From positions 1-29,547 of the IMG/VR virus record IMGVR_UViG_3300032277_000056: 29,547 nt of DNA. One strand, 5' to 3'. Below, piece by piece: positions 3,600-7,452 of the stretch. Under the pieces are notes generated by a model. It was not told where the DNA came from and did no database searches. It worked only from the letters and a program-made list of their open reading frames with translations. Source of the DNA: a virus (lineage: Duplodnaviria > Caudoviricetes). A program made the translations under genes and the position numbers. Position 1 is the stretch's first letter. Each line of letters begins with the position of its first letter.

Positions 3600-3950
3600 T
3601 TAACTTGCCAAAGCTGTTATAATATCCAATGCAGCCTTTCTCTTTGCAGGGTTTTTTATGTTCTTGAACTTCCTTGATAATTCCATCATCATGCGATTAT
3701 TAGAATCATCATTTACTAGCGGGTCTTCAAGTAGGTAGCTTATCTTAGCACCTAAAGCATGAGCAATGAGTTGCAGCCTACTAGATGCTATTGCGTTGTC
3801 ACCGTCCTCATACTTTTTAAGCTGCTGATGCGTCACATCTATTTTATTTGCTAGTTGTTGGCGTGATAAACCTTTTGCCACACGTAGCTCTTTTATCTTA
3901 CGTGCTGTGTTGTTTCTTAAATCGTCTATTGTTTTATTGTGTCTTGGCAT
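3600..3950 (-). CDS. XRE-family HTH regulator, alphaproteobacterial type
   Basis: IKELRVAKGLSRQQLANKIDVTHQQLKKYEDGDNAIASSRL matches the 'TFQQVQKYEKG.NR..ASRL' subfamily. Confidence 0.88.
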   Translation of the reverse strand: MPRHNKTIDDLRNNTARKIKELRVAKGLSRQQLANKIDVTHQQLKKYEDGDNAIASSRLQLIAHALGAKISYLLEDPLVNDDSNNRMMMELSRKFKNIKNPAKRKAALDIITALAS

Positions 3951-4818
3951 TGTAGTTCTCCTTTCTAATGTATTCTACACCATTAATTGTTATTATATCC
4001 TGCTCTATTGCTTCATGCTCTCGCTTTTCCTCTACGCAATCACAAGGGTTAAATCCAAATATCTCCTCAAATACTATTGGGTCGAAGTTTGGTAATTTAA
4101 ACGTTTTATCCCTATCTTCTTTATCGGCTTTTTCCCAAGCTTCGATATATGCAGCTTTTAAACTAGGATAGAATTTTAAATAACCACCAGTTGTTACATA
4201 TGACGGGTAAGCCTCTTTTTCTTTATCAGTCATACTGCTATCCTCAACCCACTGCGTTAAGTCAACGTATATCCAATTAGGCTTATCAGCTTTATCCCAA
4301 TCTTCACGTTTTGCAATCTTGTTAAATATTAATACATCAACGGGAGTTACAGTGTTACAATAGCCAGTGTTACTGTGGCCAGTGTTCCAGTCGCCAGTGT
4401 TCCAGTGGCCAGTGTTCCTGTTGCCAGTGTTCCAGTCGCCAGTGTTCCTGTTGCCAGTGTTCCAGTCGCCAGTGTTCCTGTTGCCAGTGTTCCAGTCGCC
4501 AGTGTTACTGTGGCCAGTGTTCCTGTGGCCAGTGTTCCAGTCGCCAGTGTTCCAGTGGCCAGTGTTCCTGTTGCCAGTGTTACTGTGGCCAGTGTTACTG
4601 TGGCCAGTGTTACTGTGGCCAGTGTTACAATAGCCAGTGTTCCTGTTGCCAGTGTTCCAGTCGCCAGTGTTCCTGTGGCCAGTGTTACTGTTGCCAGTGT
4701 TCCTGTTGCCAGTGTTCCTGTTGCCAGTGTTCCAGTCGCCAGTGTTCCTGTTGCCTGTGTTACTGTGGCCAGTGTTCCAGTCGCCAGTGTTACTGTGGCC
4801 TGTGTTATTATCAACCAT
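3934..4818 (-). CDS. Pentapeptide (NTGxx)30 repeat protein with phage C-terminal domain
   Basis: 30 NTG[HDNY][SWRC] units, then FNK...TTGGYLK...LPNFD..VFEEIFG; AAGGAG RBS. Confidence 0.88.
   Translation of the reverse strand: MVDNNTGHSNTGDWNTGHSNTGNRNTGDWNTGNRNTGNRNTGNSNTGHRNTGDWNTGNRNTGYCNTGHSNTGHSNTGHSNTGNRNTGHWNTGDWNTGHRNTGHSNTGDWNTGNRNTGDWNTGNRNTGDWNTGNRNTGHWNTGDWNTGHSNTGYCNTVTPVDVLIFNKIAKREDWDKADKPNWIYVDLTQWVEDSSMTDKEKEAYPSYVTTGGYLKFYPSLKAAYIEAWEKADKEDRDKTFKLPNFDPIVFEEIFGFNPCDCVEEKREHEAIEQDIITINGVEYIRKENYNAKTQ
4351..4806 (-). repeat. Coding 15-bp tandem repeat, 30 copies
   Basis: Unit AAC-ACT-GGC-NAY-WGK read directly from the sequence. Confidence 0.97.
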
Positions 4819-5894: not shown

Positions 5895-5922
5895 TTTACA
5901 TTATCCCAACCACCAGTATAAT
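5895..5922 (+). promoter_or_regulatory. Promoter TTTACA-16-TATAAT downstream of ssb, with no ORF behind it
   Basis: -35 at 5895-5900, -10 at 5917-5922. Confidence 0.5.
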
Positions 5923-5924
5923 AG

Positions 5925-5990
5925 GGTTCTATTAAGTTTAACAAAACTTGGTAATCCAAATATTAGAGCCTCCATTAGGGGGCTTTTTTT
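5925..5990 (+). ncRNA. Candidate ~65-nt small RNA
   Basis: Lies between the promoter and terminator; GGUUCUA/UAGAGCC and AAGUUU/AAACUU stems. Confidence 0.45.
5966..5990 (+). terminator. Intrinsic terminator
   Basis: AGCCTCC-ATTA-GGGGGCT followed by a T run. Confidence 0.8.
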
Positions 5991-6384
5991 ATTCTCTCAT
6001 CATGCAAAATAAATAATCATCTGGCTGTGGTAGCTCAATATCAAACCTTCTTGCTAAGAGGTCTATTTTATTTAGATACTCTGCAAACTCTTTTACTGTT
6101 AGCGTTGTTGTGCTTATTGGTCTACTTCTTACCTGTCCTTTGCGGTTAGTCCATGACTCCTCACCTATAAAGGCATATTTTAATTCAACGTGCATCTGGT
6201 CTTTTGTATAGCCGAAATGTTCCGACAAATATGGAATCCAAAGCCACATTAGTCGGTTTTGACTTAAGCGCCTTTTATTCTTACGCTCTTGTATAACAAC
6301 TTCCCATTTATCACCCTCATCAAGTGAGTCTATAAACTTCTTACAGTTATCTTTGCGTTGGCTGTCTGTTATGTTAAATATCAT
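5989..6384 (-). CDS. NinB-like recombination protein
   Basis: VVIQERKNKRRLSQNRLMWLW...GYTKDQMHVELK...STTTLTVKEFAEYLNKI...LPQP, NinB/YbcN-like pattern. Confidence 0.8.
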   Translation of the reverse strand: MIFNITDSQRKDNCKKFIDSLDEGDKWEVVIQERKNKRRLSQNRLMWLWIPYLSEHFGYTKDQMHVELKYAFIGEESWTNRKGQVRSRPISTTTLTVKEFAEYLNKIDLLARRFDIELPQPDDYLFCMMRE

Positions 6385-6414
6385 AGCTTACCTTTATTTA
6401 GGTTATAATACACC

Positions 6415-6792
6415 CCCGTAGAAACCCCTGCATACCACAGAACTACGGATAGGGCGTAACTGTTTAACTATGTGTTTATCGAGCAACCGTTTCTATTATC
6501 AGGTGGTTCAATCCTGCCCCGCCTTAGTTACAACGCCACTAAGAGGCTACAATAATTGCAGTTCGTAAAGCTCGTTTATTCCCTAGCTCGTTACAGCGTT
6601 GGGAGGTTCGGGGGTAATAACCCACATAGCACAAGTTAATTAGACTGAAACTTAAAACAGTGAAGGGCACATGGTTATTCTTGAATTTTATGCAACGGTG
6701 TGTTACAAAGGGTTTAGAATATTGTATCGGACTGCCCTTACAGACGATACTCTGGGCTAGCAAGCACCTAACTTGACTAGCCCTTTTTTTTT
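6415..6792 (+). ncRNA. Candidate large structured non-coding RNA (~375 nt), class unrecognised
   Basis: TATAAT at 6404-6409, many local and long-range helices with G-U pairs on the + strand, strong terminator, no credible ORF. Confidence 0.7.
6754..6792 (+). terminator. Intrinsic terminator oriented against the surrounding operon
   Basis: GGGCTAGCAAG-cacctaa-CTTGaCTAGCCC followed by T9. Confidence 0.88.
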
Positions 6793-6853
6793 ACCACTAT
6801 TCTTGCAAAGCTTCAAGTCTATCTTTTAAGTAGTCTTAGGTAGAAGTGGAACA

Positions 6854-7177
6854 TTATTTACACTCACACTCACCACGTTTATCTTTATTCAAAGGCAACC
6901 ATAAACTAGCTATCTTAACACTATGGTCGTCACGCTCAAAGTCTTGTGCTTTAAAATCCTCCCTAACCCTTCGTACAACCCTAGGTGAAGGGAATTTGCC
7001 ATTCTTAGTTATACTCATGTGCAACTCCCAACCTCTTTGAGTGTCAACTATATCTGATATTACAGTTATTCCGCTATTGTGTCTAAATGCCATATGTGGC
7101 GTAGATAACGTTGCAACTTGTTTATCCATATAATGCCAACCTCTCCCATTTTTTGGTTTTGCTAATTTATTTATCAT
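6854..7177 (-). CDS. Hypothetical phage protein
   Basis: ATG at 7177 with GGAGGA RBS; WELHMSIT...FPS motif. Confidence 0.7.
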   Translation of the reverse strand: MINKLAKPKNGRGWHYMDKQVATLSTPHMAFRHNSGITVISDIVDTQRGWELHMSITKNGKFPSPRVVRRVREDFKAQDFERDDHSVKIASLWLPLNKDKRGECECK

Positions 7178-7452
7178 AATTCCTCCAATTGTTGTTTTGT
7201 CCATTTAATCATATTATCTTGAGAGGTATATTTAGCCTCCCAAGTTTTAACACCTACCTGGTGTATGCCGTACCGCCCTGTATGATGGTTGAGGCATATA
7301 CTCATTACACGCTCATCACTGGCTTTCTTAGCCATACCCTTGATAGTTTGATTACCTATCTCATGGTGTCCAACAGCTTGGTTGGAGCATTCATGCCTAT
7401 ACTCAGGTATGTTGTGCCAGATGTAGCAGCCTATTTGCTGGTATTTATTCAT
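7174..7452 (-). CDS. Ref/DUF968-like HNH zinc nuclease
   Basis: IGC...GHH...GMAKKASD..VMSICLNHHTG.YGIHQ.G.KTWEAKY.SQ. Confidence 0.75.
   Translation of the reverse strand: MNKYQQIGCYIWHNIPEYRHECSNQAVGHHEIGNQTIKGMAKKASDERVMSICLNHHTGRYGIHQVGVKTWEAKYTSQDNMIKWTKQQLEEL

Follow-up and report, generated by a model that had tools for sequence, protein, structure and literature searches.

The DNA analysed here (the window) comprises 29,547 nt of an uncultured phage of the Caudoviricetes (IMG/VR record IMGVR_UViG_3300032277_000056, positions 1 to 29,547), and it very probably carries a gene for a structured RNA, about 370 nt long, on the plus strand of the gap between ninB and a gene for a 116-aa protein. 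Comparison with homologous contigs showed that base pairing in the 3' domain of this element is under selection, and that the element is accessory and inherited independently of both neighbouring genes. Judged by its sequence, it most likely represents an apparently undescribed family, new among the large ornate phage RNAs. The initial annotation, made from the letters of the window, had proposed an undescribed plus-strand phage non-coding RNA (ncRNA) at this place. The core of that proposal held, through covariation, retention of the element while its flanks were swapped, a lack of coding constraint and the absence of an Rfam match, whereas some of the proposed helices fell.

Compensatory changes in the 3' domain

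Homologues were obtained from the contigs of public runs, 8 of the 24 listed runs being compared (X15 gave no record, and the records of X22 and X8 do not reach the RNA). Contigs of X6 and X21 (record 2) were identical to the window across the RNA. A second sequence type was found in the estuary run X9, where a 20.5-kb contig (record 13) matched 6338-6859 with 25 of 522 letters differing and one gap (about 95% kept); the seawater run X11 and run X24 contained the same type in pieces. A third type came from the marine run X21 (record 1), a 1387-nt contig that matched 6391-6447 and then 6681-6783, on one strand and in order.

The test set consisted of the 75 base pairs of the initial annotation, including the terminator stem, and was fixed before the variants were seen. 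All nine of the pairings checked among the proposed helices were found where they had been placed. Twenty substitutions were listed in 6416-6783 of X9, and 8 of them formed four compensatory double changes. Three lie in the pseudoknot that had been proposed between AAGGGCA and UGCCCUU, at 6664/6738 (A-U to G-C), 6665/6737 and 6666/6736 (both G-C to A-U), and were present in X9 and X11. The fourth, at 6727/6747 (U-A to A-U), was shared by X9, X11 and X21 and bears out the GUAUCG/CGAUAC hairpin. Random placement of the changes gave 0.09 such double changes on average, with no trial out of 200000 reaching four; a reshuffle of the 14 clustered changes within 6660-6750 gave an expectation of 0.18 (p 1.5e-5). 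A fifth double change, 6670/6732, added an eighth pair to the pseudoknot in X9 and X11. X21 showed a third state of the 3' strand of the pseudoknot, the partner strand being outside its contig match. In a refined model of the 3' domain, for which the register of one stem (the middle of the 6676-6721 hairpin) was picked after the variants had been seen, each of the 14 X9 substitutions in 6660-6750 kept a pair, created a pair or fell in a loop. The proposed GCACAU/GUGUGU helix was discarded, since it shares letters with the supported strand of the pseudoknot and X9 disrupts it at 6670.

Anatomy and coding potential of the element

The features of the element are collected in Table 1. X9 changes were concentrated in the 3' domain (14 of 91 positions versus 6 of 244 in the 5' and middle parts). 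The sole X9 change in the P1 stem-loop (6436) fell in its loop, and the P1 segment was kept in the long form of X21; P1 showed no covariation. Both the P1 bulge and its predicted partner lie within the pieces kept by X21, which alters 6712 and 6713 in the partner and whose 5' differences are unlisted. For the middle domain, the model of the initial annotation and the energy model disagreed. The stem of the terminal hairpin was unchanged in X9, where the U run was down to six, and X21 likewise had fewer U in its tail.

Table 1. Coordinates of the RNA element, its parts and its neighbours in the window
Feature	Position	Strand	Evidence or remark
Structured non-coding RNA gene, ~370 nt	6416..6792	+	start inferred from the -10 hexamer, end from the U tract
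Putative -10 hexamer TATAAT, adjoining the likely ninB ribosome-binding site of the opposite strand	6404..6409	+	no listed change in X9/X11
5' stem-loop P1 (6416-6421/6443-6448; inner stem 6428-6430/6438-6440)	6416..6448	+	local fold
P1 bulge, 6 nt, predicted partner 6710-6715 (6 Watson-Crick pairs)	6422..6427	+	duplex -8.1 vs +0.4 kcal/mol for the local alternative
Middle domain, two competing fold models	6449..6661	+	5 listed substitutions and a 1-nt insertion in X9
H-type pseudoknot helix, 6663-6669(6670) with 6733(6732)-6739	6663..6739	+	three compensatory changes and an added eighth pair
46-nt hairpin within pseudoknot loop 1	6676..6721	+	X9 6685 and 6693: mismatches become pairs; X21 6685/6712 U-A
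Hairpin 6724-6729/6745-6750, loop forms the pseudoknot	6724..6750	+	compensatory 6727/6747
Terminal hairpin and U9, predicted intrinsic terminator	6754..6792	+	pairing probability 1.0
74-aa open reading frame overlapping the RNA, rejected as a gene	6539..6763	-	non-synonymous changes, insertion
ninB	5989..6384	-	phrog_72, E 2e-26; context, unlinked to the RNA
116-aa gene, function not assigned	6854..7204	-	context, unlinked to the RNA

The gap itself had been described as the largest of the genome (6385-6853), and it was: with 469 nt it is the biggest of the 49 gaps among the 50 listed genes, the runner-up measuring 186 nt, and both of its neighbours are on the minus strand. Coding conservation of the 6539-6763 open reading frame (ORF) was examined in X9, where 14 of 16 changed codons were non-synonymous and a 1-nt insertion lay near the end of the ORF; the ORF is therefore not under coding selection. 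Its 74-aa product had no PHROG or Pfam match. We also weighed a gap devoid of RNA function, in which case 6539-6763 of the minus strand would be a small protein gene, or the gap a neutral spacer that includes a terminator. The 74-codon frame acquired no new stop in X9 and the folding z-score of the region is weak, both of which suit that explanation, but the excess of non-synonymous changes, the insertion and the covariation (p ~1e-5) largely refuted it, and we regard it as extremely improbable.

Strand, transcription and relation to the recombination operon

The covarying pairs are Watson-Crick pairs and by themselves do not fix the strand. The observation of the initial annotation that G-U pairs favour the plus strand was reproduced, 33 of 33 model pairs holding on the plus strand versus 29 of 33 on the minus strand. 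A plus-strand terminator had also been proposed and was recovered, the hairpin at 6754-6783 being followed by nine U. Upstream, a plus-strand terminator at 5965-5986, found by the consensus scan, would end transcripts coming from further upstream, and we infer from the presence of the 6754-6792 terminator beyond it that a local plus-strand transcript is made. The listed holders of the DNA included no RNA data set. Run X24, only guessed to be RNA, contained two 151-letter pieces at depth 2, one of them beginning upstream of the promoter, and was uninformative on expression.

Folding statistics were modest over the whole region and stronger at its 3' end. Perfect helices (at least 6 bp with at least 3 G-C pairs) were mildly enriched, with 9 versus 5.1+-2.2 in shuffled sequences and 3 of 100 shuffles equal. 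Within the gap, plus-strand z-scores below -2.5 were reached only by 120-nt windows covering the 3' hairpins. The minus strand of the whole region gave z -1.88, with 2 of 100 shuffles as good.

The HK022 put site is an antitermination element, and the element could similarly be a cis-acting leader of the minus-strand mRNA, riboswitch-like or acting in antitermination, that controls the downstream gene. It stands directly upstream of ninB on the operon strand and upstream of another ORF in X21, the covarying pairs leave the strand open, and folding is marginally stronger on the minus strand (z -1.9). Yet the G-U pairs fit the plus strand (33 versus 29 of 33), the U tract and the -10 hexamer are on that strand, and the downstream gene differs among the homologues, so that we hold a leader to be very unlikely.

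The orientation of the element against the operon raised the further question of antisense action or transcription interference, by which the plus-strand transcript and its promoter would dampen the leftward recombination operon while the fold only stabilises the RNA. None of the changes listed for X9 falls in the promoter or the ninB start, and the arrangement recurs in X21, where another minus-strand ORF begins upstream. However, the RNA overlaps neither a coding sequence nor a ribosome-binding site, antisense pairing needs no pseudoknot kept by triple compensation, and the related phage genome G001 has an intact operon although it lacks the element. We therefore consider this explanation unlikely. 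The lambda OOP and P22 sar RNAs are short phage antisense RNAs that overlap the coding or initiation region of their targets. The element resembles them in having a promoter and a terminator of its own (putative signals here) and in running against an operon; unlike them, it is about 370 nt long and wholly intergenic, and it conserves a tertiary fold.

Distribution of the element and exchange of its flanks

The element sits at the same operon position in X9, between flanks that differ from those of the window. In record 13 of X9, 601 letters stand in place of 5990-6338 (most of ninB) and 402 in place of 6859-7178 (most of the 116-aa gene). A coding piece beyond the second replacement (7178-7300) differed at 13 of 123 letters, compared with 25 of 522 for the element (p 0.02). 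In both X9 and X11 all of ninB except its first 47 bases was replaced.

The X21 contig carried 669 letters instead of 233 between the kept ends (436 longer; joint 6447-6681), which implied a form of about 800 nt; joints of low likeness can stem from other organisms. The 669 letters may comprise additional RNA domains, a tRNA or an ORF. Its similarity to the window opened at the promoter and ended at the close of the terminal hairpin (6783). The segment common to all three sequence types thus amounts to only about 57 + 103 nt.

G001 is a complete relative (36,126 bases, 100% complete) that shares 75% nucleotide identity with the window over 10.7 kb of structural genes and 91% in the capsid. No element was detected in it by BLAST, nhmmer or covariance model. 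Its ninB is present without the RNA, the homologue of the 7174-7452 gene abuts ninB directly, and there is no 116-aa gene at the site. Since the element is missing from G001 and both of its neighbours are swapped in X9, we concluded that it is accessory and tied to neither neighbour.

Such a distribution could also be expected of the ends of a non-autonomous mobile element, either an IS200/IS605-type guide scaffold or an intron relic, whose intact form has an ORF in the middle. The element is patchy among close phages, and its ends are conserved around an X21 middle that is 436 letters longer and has room for a small nuclease. On the other hand, no HEARO or intron model of Rfam matched, the element closes with a terminator where a variable guide would be expected, only one copy lies in the window, its operon position is unchanged in X9, so that it does not look transposed, and no transposase was found among the ORFs scanned (13 + 11 window ORFs, a subset of all). 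We judged a mobile element to be distinctly unlikely.

The replacements in X9 bear equally on the idea of a type III-like RNA antitoxin that would counter the 116-aa protein next door, on the assumption that this protein is a nuclease of RelE/barnase fold. A pseudoknotted RNA does adjoin a small protein, and the features of that protein weakly match those of PBECR2/MuF_C nuclease-like clusters (score 0.91, a lead only). The RNA was nevertheless kept in X9 record 13 where most of the gene (6860-7177) was swapped for 402 other letters, and the protein lacked support from Pfam or PHROG, neither of which gave a match, and from its Atlas structure model, which was poor (predicted local distance difference test, pLDDT, 0.36). 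Type III toxin-antitoxin RNAs have tandem pseudoknot repeats and a co-inherited toxin, and the element has neither: no ToxI-type tandem repeats were present, the longest internal repeat being 8 letters, and the neighbour is swapped. An antitoxin is hardly credible on these grounds. The slot of the 116-aa gene is occupied by a different gene in X9, and the protein is rare, with 3 homologues among 6 candidates.

Searches for known RNA families and further homologues

Comparison of the gap with Rfam, which the initial annotation had named as a way to recognise a known RNA, yielded nothing at the gathering threshold and just sub-threshold matches up to E 10. ARAGORN found no transfer RNA (tRNA) gene and no transfer-messenger RNA (tmRNA) in the 29.5-kb window, which is incomplete relative to a genome of about 36 kb. 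No ribozyme, intron, guide RNA or HEARO model of Rfam matched the region. By blastn at E 1, no match was found among INPHARED phages with the whole gap as query, nor among plasmids (PLSDB) with the 3' part as query.

Pattern scans of IMG/VR gave 0, 67, 11 and 0 loci, none a true homologue; the first of these patterns spanned positions later found variable. Scans of GTDB gave 0 and 34 loci, again none true, the 34 being checked only by covariance model. A single scan of JGI metagenomes gave 5 loci, of which one (L229) was identical to the window and 4 were chance matches. Apart from those 34 and L229, similarity at the loci from pattern scans never ran past the seed by blastn, and nhmmer was also blank. 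When a covariance model built from the 3' domain of the window alone was applied to 79, 73 and 11 sources, selected from 294 loci with most near-duplicates omitted, the window was its only match (best other E-value 0.33). The whole records of 15 related phages (3 of them at least 90% complete) held no real match, with two short chance matches in one of them (G014), and the element was not found at 80 Erf loci and 62 + 3 ninB loci. The rest of the window had no match of at least 12 letters to the RNA on either strand, the element being single copy and having no antisense target of that length in the window. No description of this RNA was found in the literature searched, which excluded most subscription papers. 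Six motifs of the RNA were absent from the searchable supplements of PMC10690425; five files, which possibly hold alignments and may bear on novelty, lay outside that search.

Individual RNA classes were tried and rejected; for the resemblances to tRNA or a permuted-tRNA mimic, tmRNA, RNase P, group I introns and twister, key positions also proved variable. No model of tRNA, a permuted-tRNA mimic or tmRNA matched, and X9 lacks the C of the T-loop-like GGUUC at 6505-6509. RNase P RNA had no Rfam match, and the motifs flanking its P4 pseudoknot were not found on either strand. For group I introns there was no Rfam match, and the sole occurrence of the group I motif, at 6836 of the minus strand, lies outside the RNA; for group II introns there was likewise no Rfam match, and a loose domain-5 pattern, seen once per strand, was given no weight. 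Hammerhead, twister, pistol and HDV-like ribozymes had no Rfam match, and hammerhead and pistol motifs were not found in the region, nor were T-loop and signal recognition particle motifs.

A new ribozyme, self-cleaving or processing and built on a pseudoknotted core, had been among the functions suggested by the initial annotation, and nothing found favours catalysis. The size and pseudoknots of the RNA and the high conservation of its 5' and middle parts (6 changes in 244 bases) would suit a ribozyme, and large complex bacterial RNAs have been described as especially prone to unusual biochemistry (PMC5737381). But no ribozyme or intron model of Rfam matched up to E 10, the core motifs searched for were not found, the group-I-like GACU at 6643-6646 is altered in X9, and no substrate or exon context is apparent. 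We regard a ribozyme as decidedly improbable.

Genome context

The window represents most of the phage genome, relatives of which point to a full size of about 36 kb. Its gene products include a major head protein (phrog_9953), a primase-helicase, a single-stranded DNA-binding protein (SSB), NinB and an Erf-like annealing protein. The closest named relative of the capsid is that of a Bradyrhizobium phage (47%), and 4 genome matches of the capsid were of mixed origin; all 5 genome matches of the primase-helicase were alphaproteobacterial (31-48%). An alphaproteobacterial host is weakly suggested by the capsid relative and the primase-helicase matches. The best holders of window DNA were microbial-mat metagenomes.

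Several further features of the region were observed. On the plus strand, the stretch 5895-5990 holds a promoter close to consensus (11 of 12 matches) that aims at the terminator between ssb and ninB. Together they delimit a candidate RNA of some 60 nt that would form two hairpins (5925-5995, z -4.3, 0 of 200 shuffles). Positions 5900-5990 are identical in X9 and X11 despite the replaced ninB alongside. This feature may be a small RNA or merely a shared terminator cassette. On the minus strand, 3934-4818 encodes a protein of tandem five-residue Asn-Thr-Gly repeats (phrog_14105, function unassigned) that is also present in G001, at another position and orientation relative to ninB. In G001, ssb is on the erf/ninB strand, while in the window it faces erf and ninB; the early region has therefore been rearranged between close relatives. 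G001 also encodes two DNA methylases and a helicase. Within the RNA, GTTACA occurs three times (6527, 6590 and 6702, plus strand; 14 copies on the plus strand of the window) and AGCTCGTT twice, 16 bases apart. These repeats are possibly repeated binding sites, or they arose by chance.

Proposed function

We propose that the element folds into a scaffold or decoy that works in trans by binding a host protein or its own copies, a prediction to which we give roughly an even chance. During infection, host RNA polymerase would transcribe the plus strand from the element's own promoter to its own terminator, as suggested by the upstream terminator at 5965-5986 together with the G-U pairs, -10 hexamer and U tract on the plus strand. 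Pairing of 6422-6427 with 6710-6715 would hold the two conserved ends together as a core that carries an exchangeable middle domain. The folded RNA would then act in trans, and its role would probably be an accessory one in phage-host conflict, like that of other swappable early-region cargo. A scaffold or decoy was preferred because there was no antisense match of at least 12 letters elsewhere in the window, none of the catalytic cores searched for and no Rfam ribozyme, intron or guide match, and because the element behaves as swappable cargo. A bolder version, which we hold to be doubtful, would make the element the founding member of a new modular class of phage RNAs. Here the 5' stem-loop and the 3' pseudoknot domain, joined by pairing of the bulge with an internal loop, would form a compact core with a cargo domain (233 versus 669 letters) that passes from phage to phage in the manner of an accessory gene and sequesters a host defence or gene-expression factor or builds an RNA-only assembly.

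Several results weigh against an RNA gene of this kind. The covariation rests essentially on one pairwise comparison, with X9 and X21 sharing most 3' changes, and only three sequence types are at hand. When the changed positions were fixed and their letters randomised, all four pairs were kept in 4% of trials (p 0.04). In X21, the changes at 6713 and 6716 disrupt pairs of the model unless the partner letters differ too, at unlisted positions (11 of the 24 X21 differences have no listed position and are probably near the ends of the pieces). CAACGC/GCGUUG, proposed as a second pseudoknot or alternative pairing, contains an uncompensated mismatch at 6534/6598 in X9 and is turned into a nested helix by the energy model; the other middle-domain helices showed no variation at their pairs and hence no covariation. 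Folding, which the initial annotation had suggested comparing with shuffled sequence, was not clearly better than in shuffles over the whole region (plus strand z -1.39, 10 of 100 shuffles equal). The TATAAT that it had noted was confirmed at its plus-strand position, with no recognisable -35 element, and is weak evidence alone, being common in the genome (62 copies in the window, 4 of them intergenic). A scan of the window for consensus promoters and terminators listed neither this promoter nor the 6754-6792 terminator. The element, with its ~370 nt, is also shorter than the phage RNAs ROOL and GOLLD, and there is no tRNA in the window.

Bacteria and phages have few large folded RNAs, and what ROOL and GOLLD do is still an open question. 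The element is small enough for direct transcription and probing, occurs naturally in short and long forms with shared ends, and has a complete relative without it as a minus control, which together make it a practical means of learning how such phage RNAs work and of telling core from cargo. Its weak folding score and the lack of an IMG/VR or GTDB pattern match show that RNAs of this type slip past standard screens.

Comparison with known phage RNAs

The element was compared with known structured phage RNAs. The candidate structured viral and phage RNAs of PMC10690425 are, like the element, intergenic, covarying and open in function; unlike it, they are shorter, with motifs of 29-151 nt. ROOL (Rumen-Originating, Ornate, Large) averages 581 nt (PMC5737381). 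Like GOLLD, it is a phage RNA that contains pseudoknots and a variable linker and assembles into RNA-only cages (10.1101/2024.12.08.627333).

The element is not a member of ROOL or GOLLD, because it matches neither model, is smaller and has no tRNAs nearby. Against ROOL there was no Rfam match even at E 10. ROOL has three pseudoknots and six junctions, compared with one supported and one predicted pseudoknot in the element. ROOL and GOLLD are often near tRNA islands, whereas the 29.5-kb window contains no tRNA gene. The cages formed by ROOL and GOLLD are homo-multimers. GOLLD likewise gave no Rfam match (the 669-letter X21 middle being outside the scan), and many GOLLD RNAs exceed 800 nt. Moreover, the conserved part of GOLLD is its 3' region, whereas the 3' domain of the element is the part that varies most between the window and X9.

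The likenesses are nonetheless several. ROOL, like the element, is a stand-alone phage or prophage RNA with pseudoknots that is non-essential and whose function is open. GOLLD resembles the element as a modular phage RNA with a variable internal segment; it has marine members, and the X21 form, at about 800 nt, is GOLLD-sized. The element itself combines two traits of the large ornate phage ncRNAs, a pseudoknot supported by covariation (in the 3' domain only) and a non-coding sequence.
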